Origin: a bacterium
GTDB taxonomy: Bacteria > JADJOY01
Length of the DNA: 20,000 bases
Direction of reading: 5' to 3'
NCBI GenBank assembly: GCA_046331705.1
Contig: JAXLQJ010000043.1
Location: 46,596-66,595, forward strand
Below, piece by piece: positions 124 to 15,241 of this stretch (its first letter is position 1; each line of letters starts with the position of its first letter). The notes below the pieces were generated by a model. It was not told the origin of the DNA. It saw only the letters and a program-made list of their open reading frames with translations, and made no database searches. Position numbers and translations under genes: made by a program.

Positions 124-1125
124 ATGCCCAAGACACTGGTCACCGGGGCCACCGGATTGGTGGGCTGGAACGTCGTTCAGGCATTGCGCGAGCGCGACCG
201 CCCCGTGCGGGCGTTGGTTCGCGATCCCGACAAGGCGCGTCGCTTGCTGCCCGCGGAGGTGGAGCTGGTGGCGGGTGACGTGACCGATCGCGCGTCCGTC
301 GATCGCGCGCTCGCCGACGTGAACGTCGTCTACCACGCCGCGGGATTGCCCGAGCAATGGCTGAAGGACGTGGGTCGATTCCAGCGCGTCAACGTGGAAG
401 GGACGCGCAACCTCGTGGATGCCGCGCTTCAGCGAAAGGTCGAGCGGTTCGTCTACACCAGCACCATCGACGTCTTTCAGGCGGCGACGTCGCAGGAATA
501 CGACGAGTCGAGCCCCATCGATGCAACGCCGAAGGGCACGCCCTACGAGCGTTCGAAGCAGGACGCCGACCGCGTGGTGGTGGCGGCGCTCGCGCAGGGG
601 CTCCACGCCGTGATCCTGCACCCCGCGGCGCTCTACGGCCCCGGTCCCGCCGGTTCGCCAGGCATCAACGACTTCATCGTCAGGCTCGAGAAGCACCAGA
701 TCCCGGCGCTGCTGCCCGGCGGCATGCCGGTGGTCCATTCGCGGGACGTCGGAGTGGGGCACGTCCTCGCCGAGGATCGGCCGGCCGGCAGCCGTTACAT
801 CCTGAGCGAGTCCTACGTCGACATCACGCATCTGGCGTGGATCGTGAGTCATGCGCTCGGACGCAAGGACATCCCGCGCGTCATGCCGCTTGGGCTCGCG
901 AGGCTCGTCTCGGAAATCGGCGAGCGCTGGGCCGCGTTGTCGGGCCGTCCGCCGCTCATTCCGCGCGGCCAGCTCCACTTCCTGCAATGGAAGGCGCGCC
1001 CCAAGAACAACAAGGCGCGCAAAGAGCTCAAATGGACGCCGATGCTCTTCCGCGACGGTGTCCGCGCGACCGTCGCCGAGCTGACCGGAAAGCCGCTCGC
1101 CGCCGCGTCCTCGCCTGCGGGCTGA
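124..1125 (+). CDS. NAD-dependent epimerase/dehydratase (extended SDR, HpnA/dihydroflavonol-reductase-like), 333 aa
   Basis: N-terminal Rossmann motif LVTGATGLVG, VYHAAG, VNVEGTRN, FVYTST and catalytic YERSK (YxxxK). GGAG lies about 11-14 nt upstream of the ATG. Confidence 0.9.
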   Translation: MPKTLVTGATGLVGWNVVQALRERDRPVRALVRDPDKARRLLPAEVELVAGDVTDRASVDRALADVNVVYHAAGLPEQWLKDVGRFQRVNVEGTRNLVDAALQRKVERFVYTSTIDVFQAATSQEYDESSPIDATPKGTPYERSKQDADRVVVAALAQGLHAVILHPAALYGPGPAGSPGINDFIVRLEKHQIPALLPGGMPVVHSRDVGVGHVLAEDRPAGSRYILSESYVDITHLAWIVSHALGRKDIPRVMPLGLARLVSEIGERWAALSGRPPLIPRGQLHFLQWKARPKNNKARKELKWTPMLFRDGVRATVAELTGKPLAAASSPAG

Positions 1126-1226
1126 CCCGGCGAGGGGACGCCGCCATGCCGGGGCACCGGCCGTCACGGGCGCTCGCATCCCGATCGTTTCGTGCGAGGA
1201 TGCCGGCGCGCACCTGGGCGCGCTCG

Positions 1227-3209
1227 ATGAACCGACTTCTGCATCCCGTCGGCCCTGCGGCACTCTGCGCCGTGCTCGCCCTCGCGGCCGCGTGCGGCGG
1301 CGACGGCAGCCGCAGCGCGCTCGTCCCCCTGGCGCTGCCCGAGGGCTGCAACCCACTCCTCGGCGGCGGCGACTGCTTTCTGCCGTACCCGAGCGATTTC
1401 TTCCGCGTGCCGGATGCGACCGCGACGAGCGGCGCGCGCATCGAGACCCGCGGTGCCGCCAAGCTCGCCGCCGCCGACGGCTCGAGCGCCGACGTCTCCG
1501 ACTGGCGCCCGATTCAAGGCTACTCGCGCTCCTCGACCGTCCTGGGAACGCTGCTCGCTCCCACGGCGGATGCGGGCCTGGTGGGCTTCTTCGACTCGCC
1601 CGGCGAGACGCTTGCGGTGCGCAGCTCGGCGACGCTGATCGTCGATGCCGCCAGCGGCGAGTTGGTGCCGCACTTCGCCGATCTCGACCCGCGCGCCAAC
1701 GACGCGAGCCGCCAAGCGATCGCGCTCCATCCGGTGGTCCCGCTCGGCGAGTCGCGTCGCTACATCGTCGCGTTCCACGGGCTCGTCAGCCCGACGGGCG
1801 CGGACGTGCCGGCGCCGGAGGGTTTCCGGCGCATCCGCGACGGCGAGGCCGCGGGAGACACCGCGCTGGCGCCCCTCGTCGCTCGCTACGAGAGCGACGT
1901 CTTCCCCCCGCTCGAGGCGCTCGGCTTGCCGCGCGCCGAGATCCAGCTCGCGTGGGACTTCACCACCGGCTCGGACCTGGACGTGACCGGCGACATGCGG
2001 CGGGTCCGCGAGCTGGCGCTCGCGTGGCTCGCGTCGCACACGCCCGAGATCACCATCGACGACGTCGAAGAGCACGCACCCGGCGACGGCTCCGGGCTGT
2101 GGCGCACGGTCTCCGGCACCGTGCGCGGTCCGCGCTTCGTCGACTCACCCGATCCCGGCGCGCGCCTCACGCGCGACGGCGACGGCCGCGTGCGCCAAGA
2201 CGGCACCGTCGCGTTCCCGTTCCTCGCGCAGATCCCCGAACGCCTCCGCGATCCCGCCGCGGGCGCGGGCCGCGTGATCGGTCTCGGCCATGGCTTCTTC
2301 GGCACGCGCAACGAGGTGCGCAGCGCCTCGGCGATTCAGTCGGCGAATGCGCTCGGCGCGGTGGTCACGTCCATCGACTGGTGGGGCATGTCGGTCACCG
2401 ACGCACCCGGCGTGGTGCTCTCGCTGGTGGGCAACCCGGCGCGCGCCACGCTCTTCACGGATCGCGTTCATCAGGCGATCGCCAACTGGCTCACCTTCAC
2501 CGTGGCGCTGCGCGGTCCGCTGGTGGGAACGGCGGCGTTCCAGCGACCCGGCACGGAGCAGTCGGTCTACGACCCGAGTCGCGTCGACTTCTGGGGACTC
2601 TCCAACGGCGCGATCCTCGGCACCGTGCAATCGGCGATGAACCCGTGGAGCGAGCGCGTCTGCCTCAACGTGGGCGGCGCCGGCTGGTCGCAGATGATGT
2701 GGCGCTCGGGAAACTTCGTGCCGTTCCTGCTCGCCGCGTCGCTCTCGATCCCCGATCCGCTGGTGCAGCAGGAGTACGTCGCGTCGATTCAGCGGCACAT
2801 GGACCGCATCGATCCCGCCACCTACGCGCCGCTCTTCTTCGATCCCGAGCTGCCGCAGAATCCAGCCGATCGCCACGTGGTGCTGCAGATGGGCCTCGGC
2901 GACGCCGGCGTCCCCAACGTGGGCAGCTTCTACCTGGCGCGGGCGCTCGGCGCCGCCGTCACCATGCCGACCGCGGCGCCCATCTGGGGCGTCGATCCCG
3001 TGGTGGGCTTCGACGCCCGCGCCGGCGTCACCGTCTTCGACATGGGCGTCGACGCATCCTTCGAGGCCAAAGCCTCGCCACCGCTCGCCGGCAACGTCGT
3101 CCACGACGGCGTGCGATTGCTGGCCGCCGCCGACCGCCAGCTCGACGCCCTCTTCTCCGTGGAAGGCCGCGTCATCCACCCCTGCGACGGCCCCTGCGAC
3201 CCCGAGTAG
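1227..3209 (+). CDS. Lipoprotein with N-terminal Ig-like region and C-terminal alpha/beta-hydrolase (lipase/esterase-like), about 660 aa
   Basis: Start reassigned to ATG 1227 within ORF 357..3209, because the upstream part overlaps the SDR gene. Signal peptide ends in LALAAAC-GG. Also has a PYPSD motif, GHGFFG oxyanion region, nucleophile elbow GLSNG, candidate Asp (GDAGV) and His (NVVHDG), and a C-terminal HPCDGPCDPE. Confidence 0.75.
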   Translation: MNRLLHPVGPAALCAVLALAAACGGDGSRSALVPLALPEGCNPLLGGGDCFLPYPSDFFRVPDATATSGARIETRGAAKLAAADGSSADVSDWRPIQGYSRSSTVLGTLLAPTADAGLVGFFDSPGETLAVRSSATLIVDAASGELVPHFADLDPRANDASRQAIALHPVVPLGESRRYIVAFHGLVSPTGADVPAPEGFRRIRDGEAAGDTALAPLVARYESDVFPPLEALGLPRAEIQLAWDFTTGSDLDVTGDMRRVRELALAWLASHTPEITIDDVEEHAPGDGSGLWRTVSGTVRGPRFVDSPDPGARLTRDGDGRVRQDGTVAFPFLAQIPERLRDPAAGAGRVIGLGHGFFGTRNEVRSASAIQSANALGAVVTSIDWWGMSVTDAPGVVLSLVGNPARATLFTDRVHQAIANWLTFTVALRGPLVGTAAFQRPGTEQSVYDPSRVDFWGLSNGAILGTVQSAMNPWSERVCLNVGGAGWSQMMWRSGNFVPFLLAASLSIPDPLVQQEYVASIQRHMDRIDPATYAPLFFDPELPQNPADRHVVLQMGLGDAGVPNVGSFYLARALGAAVTMPTAAPIWGVDPVVGFDARAGVTVFDMGVDASFEAKASPPLAGNVVHDGVRLLAAADRQLDALFSVEGRVIHPCDGPCDPE

Positions 3210-3333
3210 CAGCGGCGCCCATCGTCCGGCGCGTGATCGGTCCCTCGGCAGCCCCGAAGCCCGCGCGTACGAGAATCGAGCCGGCTCCTCACCGAGCGCT
3301 CCGCGACCAACGACGACGCCGTGCGCGCGAGCT

Positions 3334-5139
3334 TCACCGTTCGAGGCGCAGGGCGATGTCCCGGGAGAAGTCGGGGATCGCGAGATCGATGGCGCCGCCG
3401 CGGGGACGCTCGGTGGATCGGCCGATCTCGGCGCCGGTGTACGTGTCGAACCAACGGGCATGCCACACGCCCTCGCCTTCGACCGGCACGCGGACGGTGG
3501 CGCCGGAGAGGGTCGACGAGTCGGGGCGATACCACTGGTGCGCGTCGTTCTTGATCCACACGAGCGCGGTGTGACGGCCGCGCAGCGCAAGGGTGACGAG
3601 GGCGGCGCTCGGTGCGGTGGCGCTGGCGCCGCCGACGGCGAACTCCTCGTCGTCGAAGGCGACGTCTTCGACGAAGCTGGCGAGAGCGCCGAAGTGGACG
3701 TAGGCGTCCGTGGGATCGACGACGTTGTCCCACCACCACGTCATGCCGGTGCCGAAGGCGCCGCTGAGGGCGCCGGCCCACAGCATGTCGTGGACGCCGG
3801 TGCTCTCGGGGTCGGCCGCGAGGGTCTCGGCGGGGCCCCGGAAGTCCACGCCCGCTTCGCCAGCGAGCGTGGCTTTGCCGTAGCGGCCCATGTGCGCGGC
3901 GAGCAGCGGCAGCGCGTGGCTGAAGTCGAGCGGTAGCCCGGCGACCGAGTAGAGGTGCACTTGGGTGAACGCGATCTCGGGCAGCTGCCAGAGATCGCGC
4001 AGCAACGCGGTGCCGAGAAAGAGATCGAGAAGCGCGGGCGTGCCGCTGGTGCTGGTGGTGATGGGCCGCCGCGCCGGATCGAGATCCTGGATCGCGCGCG
4101 CCATGGATTGGTGCCACTCCACCAGCGCCGCCGTGCCCGGTGAGTCAGCGAGGTCCACCTCGTTCCAGAGCTCCCACGCCAGCAGGTTGGTGGCGTAGCC
4201 GTAGCGCGCCACCAGGTAGCGCAGCCGGCGCTCGAAAAGCGAGCGCGCCGAGGGGTCGGTGAAGAATCGCGCAGGAGCGGCGAGCGGCCCGCCGTTGGCG
4301 GCGTTGTACGGGTTCCCGTCCCACTCGCTGTTGGCGGTGAGCGAGAAGGCGCCATGGTTCTGGATCGAGAGCAGGACCGCGATGCCGAGGGAGCGCGCCT
4401 TCTCGATCACGTCGTCGAGCTGCCAGGCGCGATCGAGTCGTGCCGTGTAGTCGCCGAGCGAGGTCGCCTCGAGGCCGCCGTCGGGCGCGCGCTCGGTCCA
4501 TTCGAGGGCGAACGCCCAGCTCGGCATCCAGAGCCGCGCATAGGTGGCGCGTTGCGCGGCGAGCTTCTCGAGCCAGTCGTCGTAGGCGAACGTGCCGCGG
4601 CCGTCGTACCAGCACAGGTTCTCGCCGATCGCGAAGTAGGGCGTGCCGTCCTCGTGACGGAGGTAGCGCGCGTCGCGCTCGCTCACGTGCAGGAAGCCGT
4701 GCTCGTTCGCCGCGGGGGCGCCCACCTCGACGGCGCTCCAGGGGCTCGTTCGCTCGTCGGTGTCGCCGCTCGCCGTCACCTGGCGCGCGACGAAGCGCCA
4801 TTCGAAGTGGCCGGCTTCGCTCGGCGCGAAGCGAACGACCCAGTGCGGATCGCTCGCGGCTTCGAGCGATTCGCGCCCGTCGACGAGCTCGCGGGTGAAG
4901 TCGCGGGTGACGAACGCGGGAACGCGCACGAGCGCTCCCAGAGGTGTGCGGAGCTCACCCCACACGTCCGCTTGCGCGGGATCGAACGGATTGGGGGCGA
5001 GCACGGGCAGGTCGAGGGTGCGCTCGAGCTTCCCCCAGGCGGTGAGCTCGGCGGTCGGCGCGCCGTCGTTCGACGAGGACGACGAGCCGCAGCCGGCGAG
5101 GACCAGGACGAGGAACGCCGAGAGCCGGCACGCGTTCAC
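3334..5139 (-). CDS. Lipoprotein, DUF5060-like N-terminal domain plus clan GH-A (GH5-like) glycoside hydrolase
   Basis: Probable GTG start at 5139 (alternative 5157). Lipobox LVLAG-C followed by a Ser linker. NPFDP...WVVRFAPSEAGHFEW resembles DUF5060. Also HGFLHV, DGTPYFAIGEN, acid/base WELWNEVD and candidate nucleophile LAGEAG. Confidence 0.8.
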   Translation of the reverse strand: MNACRLSAFLVLVLAGCGSSSSSNDGAPTAELTAWGKLERTLDLPVLAPNPFDPAQADVWGELRTPLGALVRVPAFVTRDFTRELVDGRESLEAASDPHWVVRFAPSEAGHFEWRFVARQVTASGDTDERTSPWSAVEVGAPAANEHGFLHVSERDARYLRHEDGTPYFAIGENLCWYDGRGTFAYDDWLEKLAAQRATYARLWMPSWAFALEWTERAPDGGLEATSLGDYTARLDRAWQLDDVIEKARSLGIAVLLSIQNHGAFSLTANSEWDGNPYNAANGGPLAAPARFFTDPSARSLFERRLRYLVARYGYATNLLAWELWNEVDLADSPGTAALVEWHQSMARAIQDLDPARRPITTSTSGTPALLDLFLGTALLRDLWQLPEIAFTQVHLYSVAGLPLDFSHALPLLAAHMGRYGKATLAGEAGVDFRGPAETLAADPESTGVHDMLWAGALSGAFGTGMTWWWDNVVDPTDAYVHFGALASFVEDVAFDDEEFAVGGASATAPSAALVTLALRGRHTALVWIKNDAHQWYRPDSSTLSGATVRVPVEGEGVWHARWFDTYTGAEIGRSTERPRGGAIDLAIPDFSRDIALRLER

Positions 5140-5201
5140 GGGGCGCGTCGCGGCCACGAGGATTCGTGGCCCTGGAGACGGTCGTGGCGGGCTTCGTCCG
5201 C

Positions 5202-6029
5202 TCACTTCGGGATCTTGATCTTCCGGAGGTCCGGCGGCCCAGGCGGATAGCGCAAGTCGAGGTCCTCGAGCGTGTGCCGCAACAGCCGCGCGACCACGTG
5301 ATTGCGGTACCACTTGCGATTGGCGGGGATCACGTACCAGGGGGCCCACGGCGTCGAGCAGCGCCGAAGCGCCACCGCGTAGGCCTCCATGTAGTGGTCC
5401 CAGAGATTGCGCTCGCCGATGTCGCCCGCCTGGAACTTCCAGTGCTTGGTGGGATCGGCGAGCCGCTCTTCGAGGCGCTTGCGCTGCTCGTCGCGGCTGA
5501 TGTGGAGGAAGAGCTTCAGGATCCGCGTGCCGCTCTCCGTCAGCATCCGCTCGAAGTCGTTGATCTGCCGGTAGCGCTCCTCGATCACCTCCGGCGAGGC
5601 CCAGCCGTGGACGCGCACCACCAGCACGTCCTCGTAGTGCGAGCGGTTGAGGACGCCGATTCGGCCCTTGGGCGGGCAGCGCTGATGCACGCGCCACAGG
5701 AAGTCGTGCGCCAGCTCCTCGGGCGTGGGCTTTTTGAACGAGTGGACCTCGAGCCCCAGCGAGTCGAGCGGACCGAAGACCTTGCGAATGGTGCCGTCCT
5801 TGCCGCCGGTGTCCATCGCCTGCAGCACCACCAGCACGCCGTGCGAGGCGGCGGCCACCAGCTTCTCTTGAAGCTCGTCGAGCGCGGCGAGGTCCTCGTC
5901 GAGAAGCTTCTCGCCCCGCTCCTTGTCGAGGCCGCCGTCATCGTCGGGATCGAAGCGGCCGAGATCGACCTTCCTTCCGTGCGTGGGGATGCGACAGCGC
6001 TTGCGGATGCGGGCTGCGTCGTTGGCCAT
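5202..6029 (-). CDS. ppk2: Polyphosphate kinase 2 family protein (single domain, class III-like), 275 aa
   Basis: Walker A region LQAMDTGGKDG, FKKPTPEELAHDFLWR, NRSHYEDVLVVRVH, KLFLHIS, KHWKF and APWYVIPANRKWYRN. ATG 6029 (MANDAAR) is preferred over 6071. Confidence 0.93.
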   Translation of the reverse strand: MANDAARIRKRCRIPTHGRKVDLGRFDPDDDGGLDKERGEKLLDEDLAALDELQEKLVAAASHGVLVVLQAMDTGGKDGTIRKVFGPLDSLGLEVHSFKKPTPEELAHDFLWRVHQRCPPKGRIGVLNRSHYEDVLVVRVHGWASPEVIEERYRQINDFERMLTESGTRILKLFLHISRDEQRKRLEERLADPTKHWKFQAGDIGERNLWDHYMEAYAVALRRCSTPWAPWYVIPANRKWYRNHVVARLLRHTLEDLDLRYPPGPPDLRKIKIPK

Positions 6030-6092
6030 GCGGCGAGTATCCCCGATGCCGGTCCCGCCGATCCACCGCAACGATCGCGCTTCTCACGAAGG

Positions 6093-6149
6093 CGGGCGAA
6101 CGGCGCGCGCGGGAGGTTGGGGGGAAGAAGCCCGCGCGCGCCGCGCCCG
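6093..6149 (-). terminator. Strong GC hairpin directly 3' of the beta-propeller gene (terminator or mRNA-stabilising stem)
   Basis: CGGCGCGCGCGGG (6101-6113) is the exact reverse complement of CCCGCGCGCGCCG (6131-6143). The stem extends via CGGGCG (6093-6098)/CGCCCG (6144-6149) around a 2-nt bulge. No good U-tract. Confidence 0.5.
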
Positions 6150-6157
6150 AAAGAGGG

Positions 6158-7456
6158 CTATTCGTCGCAAGGCTCGGGGGCGCGGTGCCAGATCTCGGCG
6201 CCGGTGGGAGACGTCGCGCAGCCGTAGCATTGCGCCGTGCCGACGTAGAGATCGTCGAAGAAAGTCTCGAGCCCGCGGATGCCGAGATTGCGTGCGTCGC
6301 CGAAGCCGGCGGGGGCGAGCTTGCCGCGCGGCCCCACCTCCTCGACCCAGGTGATCCCGTCCTTGGTGCGATAGAGGACCGCTCCCTGCTTGGCCGCGGT
6401 GGCGTCGGAGTCGGCGGCCACGTACGTGCCCAGGTAGAGCTGATCGCCGTGCTCGTGGAGGCGCCAGCCGTAGCCGCGCGCCGGATCGTCGTGGCCGTTC
6501 TGGACGACGCTCTGCCAGCTCGCGCCGAGATCGCGGCTGCGCCAGACCGCGAAGCCGTTCCGCGGGTTGCCGGTGCTCGCGTAGAGCGCGCCGCGGAACG
6601 CGATCATGCTCAGGATCTCGATGTTGCCGGAGTCGCCGAACCCGGCGCGCGTGGCGGCGGCGCCGCCCACCACCGGTGCGAGCGTGCTGCCGTCGAAGCG
6701 ATAGATCCGTGCGCCGCGCCCGTTCCACGCGGCGATGAAGAGCTGATCGCCGAGCGGCGCGATCTCGCCGAAGGTGTGGTTGCCGACGTCGTCGAGACCG
6801 TTGGCGGCCATGCGGCTCCACGAGGCGCCGTCGTACGTCCAGAGCTCGGCGCCGCGCGCGTTCGAGGTGCCGATCCAGAGCTTCTTGCGCCAGACCACGA
6901 AACCGCGCACCGAGAGATTCGCCGGGTTGCCGAGGCCCGGCTCGCCCAGACGCTTCCAGGCGACGCCGTCGCTGGTGCGCCAGAGCTCGGCGCCGGTGGC
7001 GGGATTGTGGGTCGCGGCGAGCAGCGCTCCTCCGTACACCACGAAGTTTCGGATGCCGAGGTTGAAGCGGTTGCCGAAACCGTCGCCGACGACACGCTGC
7101 CAGGCGTCGCCGTCGTAACGCCACACTTGCGCGCCGGTGGTCGCGCTCTCGTTCGACGCGCGCGGCGCGCCCACGTCCGGATCGTCGCCAGGCGCGCCCG
7201 TTCCGCGATCGAGTGTGCCCACGTAGAGGTGATCGCCGAACGCCTTCATCGACCACGCCCAGCGATTGGCGGCGTCGCCGAAGCCGTCGGCGTTGACCTG
7301 CGTCCAGCAGCCCGCGGGCACGGCGGCCTTGCGCGCGGGCGCGTCGTCGCCGGTCAACGCGGAAGCGTCTCGCGGCGCCGTCTGCGGCGCACCGCACCCG
7401 AGAATCAGCGACATCAGCGACGTCGACGCCAGGCACCTCGCCCCAACGCGCAGCAT
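6158..7456 (-). CDS. Putative lipoprotein, seven-repeat beta-propeller of unknown function, 432 aa
   Basis: ATG 7456 is preceded by GGAGGGGGAG. Signal peptide ends LMSLILG-C. Seven repeats of W-x-x-V-x-x-x-G-(F/L)-G-(D/N)-x-x-N ... L-Y-V-G-T ... GAxxWR. Confidence 0.75.
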   Translation of the reverse strand: MLRVGARCLASTSLMSLILGCGAPQTAPRDASALTGDDAPARKAAVPAGCWTQVNADGFGDAANRWAWSMKAFGDHLYVGTLDRGTGAPGDDPDVGAPRASNESATTGAQVWRYDGDAWQRVVGDGFGNRFNLGIRNFVVYGGALLAATHNPATGAELWRTSDGVAWKRLGEPGLGNPANLSVRGFVVWRKKLWIGTSNARGAELWTYDGASWSRMAANGLDDVGNHTFGEIAPLGDQLFIAAWNGRGARIYRFDGSTLAPVVGGAAATRAGFGDSGNIEILSMIAFRGALYASTGNPRNGFAVWRSRDLGASWQSVVQNGHDDPARGYGWRLHEHGDQLYLGTYVAADSDATAAKQGAVLYRTKDGITWVEEVGPRGKLAPAGFGDARNLGIRGLETFFDDLYVGTAQCYGCATSPTGAEIWHRAPEPCDE

Positions 7457-7568
7457 GAGCGCTCCCCCTCCGCAGAGCGGAATCCGAGTCGGGCTCGCTC
7501 CGCGTGAATCGCGTCGCGTGCGTCGCCGACGTCCGCGCTGCCACTCGTCTTGCCCACCCGACGGCGAG

Positions 7569-7584
7569 AGCAAGAGACGCGCCG
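7569..7584 (-). promoter_or_regulatory. Candidate sigma54 (-24/-12) promoter for the beta-propeller gene
   Basis: The minus strand reads CGGCGCG-TCTC-TTGCT against the consensus TGGCACG-N4-TTGCW. It has exact GG-N10-GC spacing and lies about 110 nt upstream of ATG 7456. Confidence 0.4.
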
Positions 7585-7957
7585 TCGCAACGGGCGTCAT
7601 CGTGTTGACCGCGTCGGCGGAGCGAGCTCGCGACGCGCACCGCAGCCGCGCGCGAGGCGCCGGCGCAAGGCTCGATCGCAACACGCGAATCCGCCGTCGC
7701 GGTGCGGGAAGCCGAAGCGATCCACGATACGCGAGCGACGTCCGCATCGAGCCGTGGGTGCGTCGAGAAACTGGCGCCTGTGATTCGCCGCATCCCACGG
7801 TTCTCGGCGGGGACGCCACTCGCGTTAGCAGGCTGCCGAAGCGCTCGCCGGCGCGCCACCGGCGTGTGGCGCCTTCACCGCCCGTTCAGCGGTGGAGTCG
7901 CGAGCGAACGCTTCGCCGTTTGTGGTTCGTGCGGCCTTCGAGTATTCCCCGCATCCG

Positions 7958-9151
7958 ATGCGCTTCATCCACACCGCCGATTGGCATCTGGGGCGCCTCT
8001 TCCACGGCGTCCATCTCACCGACGATCAGCGCCACGTGCTGGCGCAGCTCGTGACGCTGGCTCGCGAAGCGCGCGCCGATGCGCTGATCGTCGCGGGCGA
8101 CGTCTACGATCGCGCGGTCCCGCCGCCCGAGGCGGTGAGCCTTCTCGACGAGGTGCTCACGCGACTCGTGCTCGACGAGCGCATCCCGGTCATCGTGATC
8201 GCCGGTAACCACGACGGGCCCGATCGCCTCGCGTTCGGCTCGCGGATCCTCGCCGAGCGCGGGCTGCACGTTCTCGGCGTGCCCGACGCCGCGCCGCAGC
8301 CGATTCGTCTTGCCGATGCGTGGGGCACGGTCGAGGTCTTCGCCGCGCCGTTCGCCGATCCCGCGACCTTCCGAGCCCAGCTCGGCCGCGACGACCTCCA
8401 CGACCACGATGCCGCGCTGGGCGCGTGGGTGGAGCGCGCGCGCGTCGCCGCCGATCCCGCGGCGCGCCCGGTGCTCGTGGGTCACGCGTTCGTGCGCGGT
8501 GGCGCCGAGAGCGAGTCCGAGCGGCCGCTCAGCGTCGGCGGCGCCGGCGCCGTCGACGTGGCACGTCTCGACGGATTCGCGTACGTGGCGCTCGGTCATC
8601 TGCACCGGCCGCAAGCGCTGCGCGCCGACGGCGCGATCGCGTACGCGGGGTCGTTGCTCAAGTACTCGTTCTCGGAGGTGGATCACCCCAAGTCCGTGAG
8701 CGTCGTCGAGATCGACGCGCGCGGTCGCGCGTCCATCGAGCGAGTCGCGCTCACACCGCGTCGCGACGTGCGCATCCTCGAGGGCCATCTGGACGAGCTC
8801 ACCCGCGGTCGAACCGCGGCGGGGCCGGTCGCGGGCTCGCGCGACGACTATTTCCGCGTGCGCCTGCTCGACTCCGGGCCGCTGCTCGATCCGATCGGCA
8901 AGCTGCGCCAGGTCTTCCCGAACGTCCTCGAGCTCGAGCGCCCCCTGGATCGCACGACGACGCCGGCGGCGGGGAGCGTGGCTCCCGCCGATCGTCGTCA
9001 GCTCGGCGACGTGGAGCTCTTCGAGGCGTTCGTGCGCGAGATCACGGGCGACGCGCTCTCGGATGCGCAGCGCGAGCTGTTGCGCGACGTGCTGGTCGAG
9101 GTCGAGCGCGCCGAGAGCGAAGGCGACGCGGAGGCCGTCGGTGCGTCCTGA
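7958..9151 (+). CDS. sbcD: Exonuclease SbcCD subunit D (Mre11-like metallophosphoesterase)
   Basis: MRFIHTADWHLG, AGDVYDR, IAGNHD, VGHAFV, SESERPLSVGG, YVALGHLH and YAGSLLKYSFSE. Directly upstream of an SbcC gene. Confidence 0.96.
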   Translation: MRFIHTADWHLGRLFHGVHLTDDQRHVLAQLVTLAREARADALIVAGDVYDRAVPPPEAVSLLDEVLTRLVLDERIPVIVIAGNHDGPDRLAFGSRILAERGLHVLGVPDAAPQPIRLADAWGTVEVFAAPFADPATFRAQLGRDDLHDHDAALGAWVERARVAADPAARPVLVGHAFVRGGAESESERPLSVGGAGAVDVARLDGFAYVALGHLHRPQALRADGAIAYAGSLLKYSFSEVDHPKSVSVVEIDARGRASIERVALTPRRDVRILEGHLDELTRGRTAAGPVAGSRDDYFRVRLLDSGPLLDPIGKLRQVFPNVLELERPLDRTTTPAAGSVAPADRRQLGDVELFEAFVREITGDALSDAQRELLRDVLVEVERAESEGDAEAVGAS

Positions 9152-12100
9152 GCGGCTTCTCGTGCGCGGTTTCGGCCCCTACGCCGAGCCGTGCACGATC
9201 GATTTCCGCGGGCTCGGATCGAGCGCGCTCTTCCTGATCCACGGTCCCACGGGCGCCGGCAAGACCTCGCTCCTCGACGCGATGTGCTTCGCCCTCTACG
9301 GCGAGGCTTCCGGTGGTGAGCGGCGCGGCGACGAGCTACGCAGCCACCTGGTCGGCTCCGGTGTCGAGACCGAGGTGACGCTGGATTTCCGCCTCGGCGC
9401 GGCGCGCTACCGGGTGACCCGCCGGCCGAGGTACCGCCGCCCCAAGAAGCGTGGCGAAGGGGACGTCGAGGTCGACGGTCGCGCGACGCTCTGGGATCGC
9501 AGCGAAGCCACGGACGATGCCCACGAGGGCAAGCCGCTCGCGGCCAAGTCGAGCGAGGTCGATCGCGAGATCGCGCGCCGCCTCGGCTTCACGGCGGACG
9601 AGTTCCGGCAGGTGATCGTGCTTCCGCAAGGCGAGTTCCGGCGGCTCTTGACCTCCACCTCGGACGCGCGCGAGGCGATTCTCGAGGTGCTGTTTCGCAC
9701 CGCGCACTACCGCGCGATCGAGGCGGCGCTGGCACGAGCGGCGCTGGCGGCGCGGCGCGAGCTGGAGGCGCTCGAAGCCCGCCGTCAGGCCGTGCTCGAG
9801 CAGAGCGACGCCGTCAGCGAGGACGAGCTGAGCACGCGCCGCGCATCGCGGGTCGCGGAGGTCCACGCGAACCGCGCCGAGCTGGCGCGTCTGGTCGAAG
9901 AGGAGCGTCGTGCGCGCAGCGATCTCGAGGCCGCGCGCGTCGCGGCCCGCCAGCTCGCCGAGCGCGCGGATGCGGCGGCGGTGCTCGCGGCGCTCGCCAG
10001 CGGCGCGGCGGAGATCGACGTGCTGCGCGGCGAGATCGAGGCCGCGCGGCGAGCGGCACCGCTGGTGGAGCTGGTCGCGGCGTGGCGGAGGGTCGAGGAC
10101 GAGCGCCGTGCGCTCGAGGACGCGCACCGCGACGCCGCCGCGAACGAGGAGCGCGCGCAGTCCGCGCACGCCCGCGCTCGAGAAGCGCTCGCGCGCGAGC
10201 AAGGGCGCGGTCCGGAGCGCGAGGCCGCGCGCCGAGCGGTGGATCGCCTGCTCGCTGTCGGAGAGCAGCTCACGCGCTGGCGCGCCGCACAGGCCGAAGC
10301 GGCTGACGCAGCCGCGCGGGTCGCGAAGCTCGAGACCGTCGCCAACGACACCCGCGCGGAACGCGAGCGCGCCGAGCGGACGCTGGCGGAGCAAGCCGAG
10401 ACACGCGCTCGCGCTGCGCTCGCCGCGGAACGTCTCGCCGGGCTCGAAGCGACGGCGCGCGAGGCACGGATGCTGCTCGCGCGCCGCGTGGATCTCGCCC
10501 GCACCGAGCGGGCGCTGGGCGCGGAACGGCGGCGCTACGAGCGCACCGGTGCTGCGCTCGCGGAGGCGGAGTCGCGTCGCGAGGCGGCGCGCGCGGTGGC
10601 GGCGCGTCTGGAGACGCTGTGGCGCGCCGGACAGGCGCAGCGGCTCGCGGCGACGCTCGTCGCGGGCGAGCCTTGCCCCGTGTGCGGAGCGGTCGAGCAC
10701 CCGCGGCCGGCCGCGGCGTCGGCGGAGGATGTCGACGATTCCGCGCTGGATGCGGCACGTGCGGAGCTCGCGGCGTGCGAAGAACGGTCGAGCGAGGCCG
10801 AGCGTGCGCACGCGGCGGCAGGTCGGGAGCTCGCGTCGCTCGAAGGTGCCCACGCGGAGAAGCGCGCCGGGCTCGCCGCGGCTGCGGACGAGTCGCCCGA
10901 GGCATTGGAGGCTCGCGCGATCGCCGCGGAGGGCGAGCACGACCTCGCGGCGGCGGAGGTCGCCCGGATCGATGGGATCGACGCGGCGCTCGCCACCGCC
11001 CGCCAGCGACACGAGGCTGCCGGGGCTCGGCTCGCGAGCATCGACGAGGAACTCTCGACGGCACGCCGAACCCAGGCCGTCGCCAGCGGCGTGGTGGCGG
11101 AGCGCGCGGAGGCGATCCCGGGCGAGCTTCGCGCGCCCGGTGCGCTGGAGGCGAACGTGCGCGCCGCGCGGGAGACGCTCGATGCGCTCGAGGCCGCGTT
11201 CGCCGCCGCCGAGGTCGAGGCTCGTGCCTGTCGCGAAGCCCACGAGGCGGCTCTGCGCGCGCGCGGCGCGACGGCCTCGGCGCTGGCCGTGAAGGGCGCC
11301 GAAAGCGAGCGATTGGGGCCCGAGCTCGCGGTCAAGCGCGCGCGCGCCGGCTTCGCCGACGAGACCGCCCTCGCCGCTGCCGTGCGCACGCCCGCGCAGC
11401 TCGCCGTGCTCGACACGCGGATCCGGGAGTTCGATGCCTCGCTCGCGGCGGCGCGCGATCGGCTCGCCCGCGCGGAGGAGGAGGTGCGCGGCAGCGAGGC
11501 GCCGGACGTCACGAGCGTCGAGGCCCGCCACGAGAGCGCGCGCCAGCGCGCGGAAGCCGCGAGCAACGCGATCGTGGCCCTCGAGGGCGAGGTCGCGCGG
11601 ATCGACAAGGCGCTCGCGAGCTTGGGCGAGATCGGCGACGAGCTGCGCGCGCGCGACCAGCGCTTTCGCGCGCTCGGTCAGCTCGCGGAGCTCGCCGACG
11701 GCAAGCGCAACTCGTTGCGCATGAGCTTCCAGCGCTTCGTGCTCGCGGCGCTCCTCGACGAGGCGCTCACGGCGGCGACGGTGCGGCTACGGGCGATGAG
11801 CCGCGGACGCTTCTTGCTGCAGCGCGCGGCGATCGCCACCGATCAACGGCGAGCGGGCGGCCTCGATCTCGAGGTCTTCGACCTGCACACCGGGCAGGGT
11901 CGCTCGGCACGCACGCTCTCGGGCGGAGAGAGCTTCCTCGCGTCGCTGGCGCTCGCCCTGGGACTCGCGGACGTGGTCCAGGCGCACGCCGGCGGCATGC
12001 GCCTCGACACGCTCTTCATCGACGAGGGCTTCGGCAGCCTCGACTCCGAGTCGCTCGACCTCGCCATGCGCGCGCTCGAGGACCTGGAGCGCGGCGGTCG

Positions 12101-12209: not shown

Positions 12210-12232
12210 CGCGCGGCCGGTGAAGGCCGGGC

Positions 12233-13396
12233 TCAGGTGACGAGCGGCAGCGGGTCGAGCGGCGGCGCGTCGGGTCGACGCACGGAGTGCCCGCGCTGGT
12301 CCGGGCTCTCGCCGCGCCAGCCGCCGGGCGCGAAGTAGCAGTAGGCGCGCTCGCACGGGAAGCCGCGGTTCTCGCGGAAGAGCGCCTCGCAATCGCGCAC
12401 CAGCGCTTCGCCCTCGAGACCGCCCTCCACGCGATCGAGCGCCTGGGCGAGCGAGCGCACGTCCGCGATCCGCTGGCTCAGCGCGTAACGACGTCCGGCG
12501 ACCTTGAGGCTGCGCACGCCGGCGCGGCCCAGGGCGCCCACGGAGCAGAGCGCGCAGCGATAACGCACCCGCGACACCGTCATGTAGTCCACGTGGTAGC
12601 GACCAACGGCCTCCACGTCGAGGTCCTGGGCGCCCTCCTCCACCTCCACCACCACCTGCTCGTCCTTGAGGTGGCAGGGCAGCATCTCGCTCTCCTCGAG
12701 CATCCCCATCAGGATGCGAGGGGGGATGTGCGCCGTGAGGGGGCGCAGCCAGCGTTCGACACGCGGTTGCGTGAGCAGCTTCCCGCCCAGCGACGGCGCT
12801 TGCTGGATGGGGTGCAGGAAGCCGCAATGGCCGTCGACGAGATGGCAGCCGTCGTTCATCACCAACACCTCGATCTCGAGGTCGCCGGCGACGCCCACCA
12901 GCTCGGCGATCTCGGGCTCGGTGAGGTGGCGCGGCAGCACGGCGCGCCGAAAGCCGAGCGCGCGCCAATGCGCGAGCGCTTCGCCGTTGAACGCGGCGGC
13001 CACGCTCGAGAGATGCAACGGCACGTGCGGCGCGCTCTCGCGCAGCTGCGGCAGGATCGCCGGGTCGGCGACGATGAAGGCGTCGACGCCCGCCCCGCTC
13101 GCGCGCTCGATCTGCTCGCGCGCGAGCGGCAAGCTCGCGGCAGTGAAGTGATTGTTGAGCGCCAGGAACACCTCGACGCGAGCCGCATGCGCGCGCCGCA
13201 CCACCTGCGCGAGCTCGCGGTAGTCGAGGAGGTTCGAGCCGGCGTCGTCGCGGCGATTGGCGTGCTCGACGCCGGCCTCGCGCGCGGCGTCGTTGCGTGG
13301 TTGCACGCCGCAGTAGAGCTCGCTCGCGCCGGCCTCCACGAGGGGCTCGACGTCGCTGGGCTCGGAGACGGGGGCGGTGATGGCGGGTCGCTTCAT
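12233..13396 (-). CDS. U32-family ('peptidase U32') Fe-S protein, UbiU/TrhP-like subunit, 387 aa
   Basis: ATG 13396, 4 nt after the upstream stop. AP...EAGASELYCG, GVDAFIVAD, LHLSS, FN, RAVLPRHL, EIEVLV and GVRSLKVAGR are U32 hallmarks. Cys184-x6-Cys191, Cys241 and Cys281/284. Confidence 0.88.
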   Translation of the reverse strand: MKRPAITAPVSEPSDVEPLVEAGASELYCGVQPRNDAAREAGVEHANRRDDAGSNLLDYRELAQVVRRAHAARVEVFLALNNHFTAASLPLAREQIERASGAGVDAFIVADPAILPQLRESAPHVPLHLSSVAAAFNGEALAHWRALGFRRAVLPRHLTEPEIAELVGVAGDLEIEVLVMNDGCHLVDGHCGFLHPIQQAPSLGGKLLTQPRVERWLRPLTAHIPPRILMGMLEESEMLPCHLKDEQVVVEVEEGAQDLDVEAVGRYHVDYMTVSRVRYRCALCSVGALGRAGVRSLKVAGRRYALSQRIADVRSLAQALDRVEGGLEGEALVRDCEALFRENRGFPCERAYCYFAPGGWRGESPDQRGHSVRRPDAPPLDPLPLVT

Positions 13397-13400
13397 GACG

Positions 13401-14204
13401 TCACATCGGCAGCGCCGGCTGGTGGACCCATCGGTCGATTCGCCAGCCGCTCGGCGGCGTCGGTGGCGCGGGGTTCTCGTAGAAGTAGCTGTTGCCCTTG
13501 AGCCTGAGCGGCATCCCGTGCTCGCGCTCGATGCGAAGCGTGTAGCCACGGCATTCGCGGGCGCAGCCCGGCAGCGGATACGGCGCGCGATCGGGGTGCT
13601 GGTGCAGGCTGGCGGTGGGGCACGTGCGTGACGTCGACACCAGCACGAACGGGTAGTAAAGGCTGCCCGGGAGCTCGAGGTGCTCGTCGCCCGGGCCCCC
13701 CTCGAGCCCTTGCGCGAGGTGCTCGTACTCGATGCGCGCGAAGCCGAGCGCCCGCAGCGAGCGCAGGAAGCCCGGGATCGCCACCGGCGTGCCGCGCAGA
13801 TGGGCCTCTCCGGCGCCGCCGCTCTCGAGGTAACGCGGGATCATCGGGTCGCGCTTGAGCTTGTGCAGCAAGCGCCCGAACACCAGGCCGAAGCCGCCCG
13901 CGCGTTCGCGGAGCATTCGATGGACGCCCCAATCGTTGACGACGATCTCCGCGTTCGGAGCCTCGCGCGCGAGAACGTCGAGAAGCCGCGCGAAGGGCTC
14001 GAGATCCGGTTGCGCGAGGTAAGGCGTGACGAACGTGATGGGCTTGCCGGCGTCGCGGGTCCGCGCCAGCACCTGCCTGAGCTCCGCTGGCCGCGGCAGC
14101 AGCCGCGGGCAGACCTCGTTGCCGAAATAGAGTCGGTCCGCGGCGAGGAGCGCCTCGTCGCGTAGTCGCGCCGGATCGGAAACGAAGAGAGCGGTCTCGT
14201 TCAC
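13401..14204 (-). CDS. Divergent U32-family protein, UbiV-like subunit, about 267 aa
   Basis: Probable GTG start at 14204 (alternative 14213). ADRLYFGNEVC resembles UbiV ADVIYLGEAVC. Also GKPITFVTP, EIVVNDWG and GRLL. Four Cys arranged C32...C195-x18-C214-x3-C218. Co-oriented and adjacent to the other U32 gene. Confidence 0.75.
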   Translation of the reverse strand: MNETALFVSDPARLRDEALLAADRLYFGNEVCPRLLPRPAELRQVLARTRDAGKPITFVTPYLAQPDLEPFARLLDVLAREAPNAEIVVNDWGVHRMLRERAGGFGLVFGRLLHKLKRDPMIPRYLESGGAGEAHLRGTPVAIPGFLRSLRALGFARIEYEHLAQGLEGGPGDEHLELPGSLYYPFVLVSTSRTCPTASLHQHPDRAPYPLPGCARECRGYTLRIEREHGMPLRLKGNSYFYENPAPPTPPSGWRIDRWVHQPALPM

Positions 14205-14283
14205 CAGCCGCACCGGTAAGGCGAAGCCGAGGCGGGGGGCGCGCGGCACCGCGTGCGATCGAGGCGATCTGCGCCGAAGTGCG

Positions 14284-14301
14284 GCACGATCCCGATCGTG
14301 C
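14284..14301. promoter_or_regulatory. Perfect inverted repeat GCACGATC-cc-GATCGTGC, candidate operator
   Basis: 8-bp arms with a 2-bp spacer in the 168-bp divergent spacer, immediately downstream of the predicted minus-strand -10 box. Confidence 0.45.
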
Positions 14302-14305
14302 GGGC

Positions 14306-14335
14306 AGAATAGGAACCGCTCGGAGGGGGCGTCAA
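14306..14335 (-). promoter_or_regulatory. Candidate sigma70-type promoter for the U32 pair
   Basis: The minus strand reads TTGACG-N18-TATTCT, near-consensus boxes in a very GC-rich background, about 100 nt upstream of GTG 14204. Confidence 0.5.
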
Positions 14336-14372
14336 GGAAAGCGCCCATCGCGAGCTCGGCCGCTGCCACCCC

Positions 14373-15200
14373 ATGCTTCCCTCGAACGATCTCGCGTCCG
14401 CGCTGCGCTGTCCGCGCTGCGGTGCATGCGCGCTCCGGCGCGCGATCGACGCGTGCACGCTCGAGTGCCAGGGTTGCGGCGCGGAGGTGGCGTGGTCGCG
14501 GGGCTTCGGCGATTTCACCTGGGCGGGGAACGACCCGGCTTCGGGTGAGGAGGCGATCGCGCGGCGCTACGACGGGCTCGGCGGGGCGAGCTACGACTGG
14601 TTGGTGCGGCACGCGTTCGCGGCGGAGCTGCTCTTCCGGCGCTTCTGGGGCGCGTCGCATGCGGCGGCGGCGCGGCGGATCGCGGCGCGCTTCCCGGACG
14701 CGAAGGGCGCGCGGGTGCTGGATCTACCGGTGGGTGGCGGCGCGGCGCTGGTGCGACACCGGGCATCGCTCGTGTCGGCGCGGTGGGTGGTGGGCGTGGA
14801 CCTGTCGGCGGGGATGCTCGCCCGCGCGGCGCGGCGGTTGGCGGCGCTCGGGACGGGCCACGTGGCGCTGGTTCGAGCACCCGCCACGCGCTTGCCGCTC
14901 GCTGATGCCACGGTGGACCAGGCGCTCGCCGTCAACAGCCTTCACTGCTTCGTCGATCCTGGCGGCGCGCTTCGCGAGCTGCGTCGCGTGCTGGCGCCGG
15001 GGGGCGTGCTGGCGGGGTCGTGCATCGTGCGCGGTGCCGGTCCCGCCGCCGACCGGCGCATCGAGCGCATGCGGGAGCGCGGCCATTTCGCGGCAGCGCT
15101 CGAGCGCACCGAGATCGAGCGCGCGCTGGGTGCCGCGGGCCTCGAGGCGATCGGTTGCGATCAGCTCGGCGCGGTGCTCGTCTTCGCCGCGCGTGGATGA
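14373..15200 (+). CDS. Class I SAM-dependent methyltransferase (Methyltransf_11/UbiE-like) with N-terminal Zn-ribbon, 275 aa
   Basis: N-terminal LRCPRCG...LECQGCG. Motif I VLDLPVGGG, VVGVDLSAGML, LPLADATVD and SLHCFVDPGGALRELRRVLAPGG. Confidence 0.88.
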   Translation: MLPSNDLASALRCPRCGACALRRAIDACTLECQGCGAEVAWSRGFGDFTWAGNDPASGEEAIARRYDGLGGASYDWLVRHAFAAELLFRRFWGASHAAAARRIAARFPDAKGARVLDLPVGGGAALVRHRASLVSARWVVGVDLSAGMLARAARRLAALGTGHVALVRAPATRLPLADATVDQALAVNSLHCFVDPGGALRELRRVLAPGGVLAGSCIVRGAGPAADRRIERMRERGHFAAALERTEIERALGAAGLEAIGCDQLGAVLVFAARG

Positions 15201-15241
15201 TGGCGGCTGGCCGGCGGCATCGCGTGGGCTGCGCTCGAGGC

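Follow-up and report, generated by a model that had tools for sequence, protein, structure and literature searches.

A UbiU/UbiV-like U32 gene pair joined to a methyltransferase gene: a candidate cassette for oxygen-independent hydroxylation and O-methylation

A 20,000-nucleotide stretch of bacterial DNA (GTDB lineage JADJOY01; NCBI GenBank assembly GCA_046331705.1, contig JAXLQJ010000043.1, positions 46,596 to 66,595 of the forward strand), referred to here as the window, carries a cassette of three genes. Two of them encode a V-like protein (P0001) and a U-like protein (P0002) that we assign to a heterodimeric enzyme of the U32 type, and the third encodes a class I S-adenosylmethionine (SAM) methyltransferase (P0003). 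The cassette is a variant of the kind of enzyme represented by UbiU-UbiV (YhbU/YhbV in Escherichia coli), joined to a methyltransferase. The assignment of the pair as a heterodimeric U32-type enzyme is firm. On the sequence evidence, its function as a hydroxylase is about an even call, and we give the same even chance to the fuller proposal that the cassette specifies a new U32-type heterodimeric hydroxylase together with an O-methyltransferase.

According to one report (PMC10990095), most of the twelve U32 subfamilies are uncharacterized, a four-cysteine motif is common to U32 proteins, and the known functions number three, concerning ubiquinone, tRNA U34, and 23S rRNA C2501; the oxygen donor of UbiUV is prephenate. 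In the mechanism that homology with UbiU-UbiV, TrhP, and RlhA makes most likely, the V and U genes of the window would be co-transcribed and their products would form a heterodimeric iron-sulfur (Fe-S) enzyme of the U32 superfamily. The dimer would oxidize an aromatic or heteroaromatic carbon without O2, with Fe-S clusters at the interface taking the electrons away, and prephenate would deliver the hydroxyl group. The methyltransferase would then methylate the new hydroxyl, in the manner of UbiUV with UbiG or of TrhP with TrmR or CmoM. Fe-S binding, the hydroxylase chemistry, the prephenate donor, O-methylation, and the class of substrate are elements that we infer. A similar arrangement exists in Bacillus, where the two-gene pair TrhP1/TrhP2 lies beside TrmR, a methyltransferase of the family PF01596 that methylates the new hydroxyl. 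P0003 differs from TrmR in that PF01596 is not among its Pfam matches; it is a Methyltransf_11 protein.

P0002 matched the Pfam family Peptidase_U32 (PF01136) with 102.4 bits, above the gathering threshold of 22.4, and all 33 relatives of P0002 carry the same domain. It is not a member of the named U32 families. With the UbiU model NF047963 it scored 93.2 bits against a cut-off of 440, over the N-terminal half only, and with the TrhP model NF011996 it scored 65.3 bits against 534. Weak matches to the UbiU model occurred in 60 of 60 U family members (best E value, 2e-37), and no RlhA model occurred among the NCBIfam matches of P0002 and of the U family. A quick IQ-TREE phylogeny of 80 U32 proteins, with E. 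coli UbiU, UbiV, TrhP, and RlhA as the named references, placed P0002 and 62 relatives in a 63-row clade (SH-like approximate likelihood ratio test [SH-aLRT], 100; stem, 3.34). All four references lay outside this clade, as did 11 UbiU-like database sequences, with which E. coli UbiU grouped; the tree did not resolve them as a single clade. TrhP and RlhA are U32 Fe-S proteins tied to prephenate-dependent hydroxylation, the chemistry proposed here for the pair. Since P0001 likewise failed to match the UbiV model (see below), the proposal of the sequence-only reading that these are not bona fide UbiU, UbiV, or TrhP proteins was borne out.

The conserved cysteines of P0002 overlap in part with those of UbiU. 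The protein holds nine cysteines, six of which (C184, C191, C241, C281, C284, and C353) are invariant in 60 of 60 relatives; two more are nearly so, with C29 present in 57 of 60 and C348 in 55 of 60. The C-x6-C pair of UbiU has its counterpart in C184 and C191, and the cysteine of the "CKGR" motif, which is C232 of UbiU, has its counterpart in C241. The cluster cysteines of E. coli UbiU are C169, C176, C193, and C232.

The relationship of P0001 to the U32 superfamily is more remote. No Pfam or NCBIfam model matched the protein even at an E value of ≤10, whichever start codon was used. A search of the clustered protein database gave 31 relatives, not one of which has a precomputed Pfam domain; the named ones are called "hypothetical protein." In the ESM Atlas, P0001 retrieved 30 unnamed clusters, the nearest one with a Pfam family being Peptidase_U32 at a weak score of 0.81. 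The UbiV model NF047965 (cut-off, 275), with which E. coli UbiV scores 362.6 bits, gave no match. The V family is therefore unlike UbiV in being missed by PF01136, which is carried by all of the UbiV relatives listed (at least 120). P0001 is like UbiV in the layout of its cysteines: its only four (C32, C195, C214, and C218) are each invariant in 26 of 26 family members and follow the UbiV-type order, one cysteine after strand 1 and then C-x(12-18)-C-x3-C.

The decisive evidence came from a comparison of profiles. We built a UbiV profile from 33 sequences, namely 32 UbiV genes from Pseudomonadota genomes, 30 to 91% identical to the E. coli protein, and E. coli UbiV itself; a first set of at least 120 relatives, all enterobacterial and 73 to 100% identical, was not used for this profile. 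In hhalign, the V family matched the profile with a probability of 86.7% and an E value of 4.4e-6 over 214 columns, and C32, C195, C214, and C218 of V aligned with the four conserved cluster cysteines of UbiV. The highest probability among ten column-shuffled controls was 3.1%, and a reversed alignment gave 0.3%. The V family matched the U family at 91.3%. Comparisons with single sequences gave 7% for E. coli UbiV, which is too weak to use, and 0.9% for UbiU. With the cysteines in register, the profile match marks P0001 as a remote UbiV-like member of the U32 superfamily that current domain models do not recognize. The earlier assignment of both genes to the U32 family thus stands for P0002 by its Pfam match and for P0001 as remote homology, and a four-cysteine pattern, which had been ascribed to both proteins, applies to P0001 and not to P0002.

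The AlphaFold2 model of P0001 is a TIM barrel (pLDDT, 87.4; pTM, 0.88). In a structure search, the minimal archaeal U32 protein Mk0906 (PDB 5d88), like P0001 a single TIM-barrel domain of similar size, ranked second (Z, 12.5; root mean square deviation, 4.0); its alignment, over 197 of 247 residues, was longer than any other listed. Mk0906 differs from P0001 in sequence, with 12% identity and no sequence-level match. Foldseek hits in the PDB were generic TIM barrels, and 5d88 stood fifth among them.

The pair had been described as an orphan, and this description failed. A profile search of 1.84 billion cluster representatives recovered 2260 V family members at an E value of ≤0.001, 1812 at ≤1e-10, and 834 at ≤1e-30. 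We then scanned one genome per GTDB species, which yielded 372 stretches with a V relative, and used the best 80 loci. V carriers among these belong to Thermodesulfobacteriota, Chloroflexota, Omnitrophota, Bacillota, Acidobacteriota, Gemmatimonadota, Bathyarchaeia, Woesearchaeota, and Undinarchaeota; unlike UbiU-UbiV, the V/U carriers are mostly anaerobic lineages and archaea and not Pseudomonadota. U adjoins V in 60 of the 83 V copies at these loci, in both gene orders. A script found U next to V on the same strand for 56 copies (34 U-then-V and 22 V-then-U), and four further adjacent pairs, at L005, L006, L079, and L082, had been hidden from it by over-extended open reading frames (ORFs). 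The V-then-U order of the window occurs in 25 of the 60 adjacent copies and is common in the family. As for the other V copies, two have one ORF between V and U, five lie at contig edges, and 16 have no U within 6 kb, seven of which adjoin a Ham1 gene. These U-less V paralogues, often directly 5' of Ham1 (dITP/XTP pyrophosphatase) in Thermodesulfobacteriota, were noted at L014, L016, L022, L024, L026, L030, L033, L034, L049, L053, L058, L061, L075, and L078, with V at about 6001-6790 in these loci; several of the genomes also have a V-U pair.

Structure prediction supports binding between the two proteins of the window. Co-folding of P0002 with P0001 gave an ipSAE of 0.91 in all three runs, compared with 0.00 for the best of three controls. 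About 240 contacts were predicted, at least 81% of them common to the runs, with partner pLDDT values of 87 to 88. The benchmark for this value, 116 of 157 solved complexes against 2 of 215 mismatched pairs, is only roughly valid here because our own alignments were used. Sequence searches of the PDB with the V family profile and with P0002 gave no relevant match, so recall of a solved complex is an unlikely source of the prediction. The predicted interface includes the neighborhoods of the cysteines (U residues 185-187, 190-194, 241, and 243; V residues 31, 189-196, and 219-227). The pair shares with UbiU-UbiV the two adjacent U32-superfamily genes and, by prediction, the heterodimer. The heterodimer anticipated by the sequence-only reading is upheld by the co-fold together with the adjacency of U and V across the family.

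Several features of the subunits weigh against a hydroxylase. The identity of P0002 to E. coli UbiU is 28% over 173 N-terminal residues, a distant homology, and the similarity of V to UbiV is found at the profile level only. In the structure search, 5d88 was level with the unrelated CutC (Z, 12.9), and Z values of 10 to 12 were common among other TIM barrels, so the fold alone does not decide whether P0001 is a U32 protein. The third ligand of UbiU, C193 (the "GxCSP" cysteine), has no counterpart in the U family, which instead has four additional conserved cysteines (C281, C284, C348, and C353) that are absent from UbiU; the cofactor content may therefore differ from that of UbiU. The arrangement of the extra cysteines as CxxC plus C-x4-C suggests a second metal site. 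The branches that lead to the U and V proteins of the window are also long (2.46 for U in its tree). The U tree grouped the window pair with Undinarchaeota (an 8-row group; SH-aLRT, 97), a placement that we rejected because it carries a long-branch warning and the V tree disagrees; the grouping was not recovered there, and only L042 is nearest in both trees.

The second four-cysteine set also enters into a different account, in which the proteins are not hydroxylases. They would be a true peptidase of the U32 type plus its accessory subunit, or else an oxidoreductase or dehydratase with Fe-S clusters and a different chemistry, such as reductive dehydroxylation or electron transfer. The family is named for collagenase-like peptidases, and a review in Metallomics states that sequence cannot yet separate the oxidases from the putative peptidases (PMC11574389). 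According to PMC10990095, direct in vitro hydroxylase activity is not known for any U32 protein, and relatives of the pair frequently have electron-transfer neighbors (FAD_binding_4, CCG, and ETF). However, the invariant cluster cysteines of both subunits lie at the predicted interface, which is UbiU-UbiV-like rather than resembling a protease site. Moreover, the quinohemoprotein amine dehydrogenase (qhp) operons that hold some of the relatives (see below) already contain a QhpE-like protease, and the known step that they lack is a hydroxylation. We consider this account improbable.

The gene layout of the window (Table 1) is compatible with a V-U operon and a divergent methyltransferase gene. 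The V stop codon (TGA, 13403-13401) and the U start codon (ATG, 13396-13394) are separated by the four nucleotides cgtc, and the methyltransferase ATG at 14373 faces the V GTG at 14204; both the 4-nucleotide spacing and the head-to-head arrangement across 168 bp had been read correctly from the sequence. With the GTG start, the V product begins VNETALF, in register with the "ME.A.F" N termini of 25 homologues. One promoter-like site was found in the 168-bp gap, compared with 0.0 expected from 50 shuffles of the region, and its -35 TTGAC and -10 element are kept in all five genomes of the genus. No Rfam family matched anywhere in the window, and we rejected a riboswitch or other RNA in the V-methyltransferase intergenic region on this ground. 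A mobile-element origin of the cassette was likewise rejected: the flanking repeats are only short GC-rich chance matches, and the GC content, about 71% in the window, is the same as that of the neighbors. The cassette is flanked by sbcD and sbcC upstream and by genes for a DUF4010/MgtC membrane protein, PilT, and a patatin-like protein downstream. As had been claimed, neither a ubi gene nor a further U32 gene was found among the genes of the window, to which the search for ubiT was confined. Upstream of sbcD, positions 357-7859 of the window hold several overlapping long ORFs of up to 950 amino acids on both strands, with no Pfam match at an E value of ≤1e-5; the single exception is a weak DUF5060 match in 3334-5697 (- strand).

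TABLE 1 Features of the cassette and their positions in the window
Feature	Position	Strand	Description
U-like gene (P0002)	12233..13396	-	387 amino acids, stop included; Peptidase_U32, eight conserved Cys
V-like gene (P0001)	13401..14204	-	267 amino acids, GTG start, stop included; four-Cys TIM barrel, remote UbiV homologue
Divergent intergenic region, V to methyltransferase	14205..14372	.	168 bp; no Rfam match
Sigma-70-like promoter	14306..14335	-	TTGACG, 18 nucleotides, TATTCT; about 100 nucleotides upstream of the V start
Class I SAM methyltransferase gene (P0003)	14373..15200	+	275 amino acids; Methyltransf_11, N-terminal CxxC...CxxC
Cassette (U, V, methyltransferase)	12210..15241	.	between the sbcC stop (12209) and the end of the DUF4010/MgtC gene (15242)

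P0003 scored 62.4 bits with Methyltransf_11, and its Pfam matches comprise the Methyltransf_11/25/12/31/23 and UbiE families. Its best NCBIfam match, of 61.8 bits where the cut-off is 155, was to the DVU_1556 family, and weak matches were obtained to the models of CmoM (E value, 0.001), CmoB (0.003), and RlmA (0.002). The N-terminal CxxC...CxxC motif consists of C13, C16, C32, and C35. It had led to the protein being called a Zn-ribbon methyltransferase; the motif is there, but no Pfam zinc-ribbon model matched, so that the label depends on the motif alone. The cysteine motif is present in the window, at L003 and L004, and in the Undinarchaeota neighbor described below, and is absent at L005, L006, and L069.

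Three lines of evidence connect the methyltransferase with the U-V pair. First, the three genes behave as one block. The family has one other genus, the sister genus (G005; 100% complete), which has no V, and its contig C249 reads SbcD, SbcC, DUF4010, PilT, with about 100 nucleotides between SbcC and DUF4010 and none of U, V, and the methyltransferase there; the best methyltransferase-like gene in that genome is 37% identical and on a different contig. The closeness of sbcC and DUF4010 in the sister genus indicates that U, V, and the methyltransferase are present or absent together. Second, at two Undinarchaeota loci, a CxxC-containing Methyltransf_11 methyltransferase lies divergently beside U-V (BLASTP E value, 8e-9; 25% identity to P0003). 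Third, V is fused to methyltransferases elsewhere. Among the best 150 of the 2260 V family hits, four V proteins have at least 460 amino acids, and all four carry a fused Methyltransf_11/25 domain, in three architectures: methyltransferase-V (P0240), V-methyltransferase (P0251 and P0269), and B12-radical-SAM/glycosyltransferase/V/methyltransferase (P0262). In a metagenome scan with the V-methyltransferase form, 6 of 80 loci held such a fusion (among them L136:2857-5362, L201:499-2906, L202:2901-5308, and L211:1127-3627). U lies directly upstream in four of the six, a U fragment stands at the contig start in one, and the last has a flank of 96 nucleotides. BLAST against annotated neighbors found a B12-radical-SAM-like gene 5' of U in three of the six.

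Other observations count against a specific role of P0003 in the pathway. Pfam annotation covered 150 of the 151 genes that directly flank V/U at 76 loci outside the genus, and a class I methyltransferase flanks the pair at only 3 of the 76 (L069, L072, and L080); at L069, an Omnitrophota locus, it comes directly after V. Homologues of P0003 near V were limited, among the best 80 loci, to four other species of the genus and the two Undinarchaeota loci. Within the genus the whole stretch is syntenic (SbcD-SbcC-U-V-MT-DUF4010-PilT, where MT is the methyltransferase), so the adjacency seen there carries little weight. Two of the four orthologues of P0003 in the genus lack its cysteine motif. Finally, the fused methyltransferase domains do not belong to the P0003 subfamily (best BLASTP E value, 0.002; two others not significant), and what the V/U enzyme is linked to is therefore SAM methylation at large and not this exact orthologue.

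These points feed an alternative in which U-V is a U32-type Fe-S heterodimer and the methyltransferase is an unrelated neighbor, so that the product would be hydroxylated and not methoxylated. Besides the rarity of flanking methyltransferases, the general synteny of the genus, and the different subfamily of the fused domains, this alternative draws on the position of the methyltransferase gene, divergent and outside the V-U operon, and on its faster evolution (56 to 67% identity, compared with 75 to 97% for the neighbors). The joint absence of the three genes from the sister genus, the Undinarchaeota arrangement, and the fusions with U upstream speak against it, and we judge it rather unlikely. 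The linkage that the sequence-only reading had proposed is thus sustained by the block, the Undinarchaeota loci, and the independent fusions, but not by the flank census. We conclude that the link is real but patchy, and that the chance of the methyltransferase acting on the same substrate as U-V is somewhat better than even.

We next considered which substrate the window pair might act on. Ubiquinone is unlikely. No UbiA above cut-off was found in the genome (best UbiA_proteo match, 89.7 bits against 275.45), which led us to reject a ubiquinone role, and there is no ubiT neighbor in the window; in both respects the pair is unlike UbiU-UbiV. The best MenA match in the genome was 44.9 bits against 102, and MqnA/D had no match. 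The search for known U32 pathways was likewise negative for the N-terminal domain of TrhO (PF17773; no match) and for CmoB, whose model matched at no more than 29.8 bits against 275, in accord with the expectation that the genome lacks a full known pathway. P0002 is the sole PF01136 match in the 8.17-Mb genome (95.7% complete). Most of what the sequence-only reading inferred is supported. The donor is predicted to be at hand: chorismate mutase CM_2 was above cut-off in all five carrier genomes tested, including that of the window, so that prephenate should be available in carrier genomes.

The absence of a TrhO-domain match and of another U32 protein, together with the low CmoB scores, leaves room for a role in RNA modification. 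The pair would then be a tRNA or rRNA pyrimidine C5 hydroxylase like TrhP1/TrhP2 or RlhA, and the methyltransferase would make a methoxy nucleoside such as mo5U. Three reports indicate that two of the three characterized U32 functions are RNA hydroxylations (PMC10990095, PMC6599085, PMC5727448), and the weak matches of P0003 include the RNA-related models CmoM, CmoB, and RlmA. These matches, however, are far below cut-off and typical of generic class I methyltransferases, and U, V, and the methyltransferase showed no RNA-binding domain. The distribution is also patchy for a function in translation: V occurs in only 2 of 55 sampled genomes outside the family of the window, and the sister genus has none. 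An accessory function fits this pattern better than a translation role. Sampling of the lineage is thin, with six species genomes in the GTDB phylum of the window, five of which have V. The genes around relatives of the pair also belong to peptide, cofactor, and secondary metabolism (qhp operons, YcaO genes, and SPASM and B12 radical SAM genes). We regard an RNA substrate as quite improbable, and we put an aromatic residue of a peptide or protein, or else a secondary metabolite, ahead of housekeeping RNA as the likelier substrate.

The contexts of the relatives are varied. At 15 of the 76 loci the pair has a radical SAM gene as an immediate neighbor, B12-binding and HMPTM-type ones among them, and further recurrent neighbors elsewhere are YcaO genes and, in Thermodesulfobacteriota, LplA with a small radical SAM gene. 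Such diversity makes a single function for the whole family unlikely. Three Omnitrophota loci (L043:3033-12834, L069:4161-8081, and L081:4923-10563) carry U-V pairs in tandem, two or three per locus, together with genes for YcaO, radical SAM, and ABC transporter proteins and look like peptide natural-product clusters. At ten loci of Chloroflexota and Bathyarchaeia (L012, L018, L028, L029, L039, L041, L046, L052, L060, and L065), U-V is preceded by two FAD_binding_4 genes and one CCG/4Fe-4S gene (GlcDEF-like), and an ETF gene often lies opposite; this set may be the so far missing system that accepts the electrons of U32 oxidation. At the Desulfonema-like loci L036, L047, and L055 (about 1760-12084), a methylmalonyl-CoA-mutase/B12-binding/MeaB set lies on one side of U-V, and FAD_binding_3, two BcrAD-type ATPases, and two HGD-D dehydratase subunits lie on the other.

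The most informative context is that of one branch of the family, in which V-U lies inside a qhp operon at all three loci. Two come from Blastocatellia (Acidobacteriota) metagenome-assembled genomes (MAGs) (L050:1045-10546 and L076:594-10788) and one from a Gemmatimonadota MAG (L074:948-7413). The operon order is QH_alpha, QhpD, QH_gamma, QH_beta-like, V, U, ABC (an exporter), QhpE-like. QH_alpha scored 516 bits at L050 and 513 at L076 (cut-off, 274), and QhpD scored 591 at both (cut-off, 453); the stretch analyzed at L074 does not extend to these two genes. QH_gamma scored 135.6 at L050 and 56 at L074, where there are two copies, and was not found at L076 (cut-off, 50). The QhpE-like protein scored 165.8, 158.7, and 140.7 at L050, L076, and L074, respectively (cut-off, 165).

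In the characterized system, QhpG is an O2-dependent enzyme with flavin adenine dinucleotide that dihydroxylates the tryptophan that becomes cysteine tryptophylquinone (CTQ), and all qhp genes are reported to be necessary (PMC7876137). No QhpG-type flavoprotein was found among the ORFs scanned at the three loci. The presence of V-U in these operons, with no QhpG seen there, makes it plausible that V-U carries out the dihydroxylation of tryptophan without O2. V-U would then be like QhpG in the reaction on the gamma subunit but unlike it in lacking any sequence relation and in not depending on O2. For this branch, the context suggests peptidyl-tryptophan as the substrate.

The analogy concerns the relatives and not the window copy. 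The genome of the window has no QH_alpha, on which ground we rejected a CTQ role for its own pair, and its best match to the QhpD model was 257 bits against 453. The qhp operons are therefore a lead to the chemistry of the family and not to the substrate in the window. The QhpD-like match is a SPASM-type radical SAM peptide maturase (G000:C85:7247-8620; L092), possibly a sign that this genome encodes a peptide substrate at another place.

Taken as a family-wide proposal, the V/U proteins may be an unrecognized O2-independent hydroxylase branch whose targets are tailored natural products and the aromatic side chains of proteins and ribosomal peptides. Such a branch would replace QhpG in Acidobacteriota and Gemmatimonadota, where it would make the tryptophylquinone of quinohemoprotein amine dehydrogenase in the absence of oxygen, and would form a hydroxylate-then-O-methylate module in the lineage of the window and in the V-methyltransferase fusions. 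We advance this tentatively, as falling somewhat short of an even chance. In open-access papers and bioRxiv we found no description of the V/U family, of a U32 protein in qhp operons, or of a U32-methyltransferase fusion, and in those of 2024 to 2026 no further U32 substrate was described.

The UbiV-like family, with its 2260 cluster representatives in many anaerobic bacterial phyla and archaea, is missed by current domain libraries and almost always comes with a U32 partner of its own. Two functional handles on it are now available, its recurrent fusion or linkage to methyltransferases and its place in qhp operons that show no QhpG. If the proposal is true, a U32 enzyme would for the first time have a protein or peptide as its substrate, and there would be a way to make a quinone cofactor anaerobically. 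The qhp case poses a testable question, namely, whether a protein-derived quinone cofactor may be made without O2, with prephenate as the oxygen donor.

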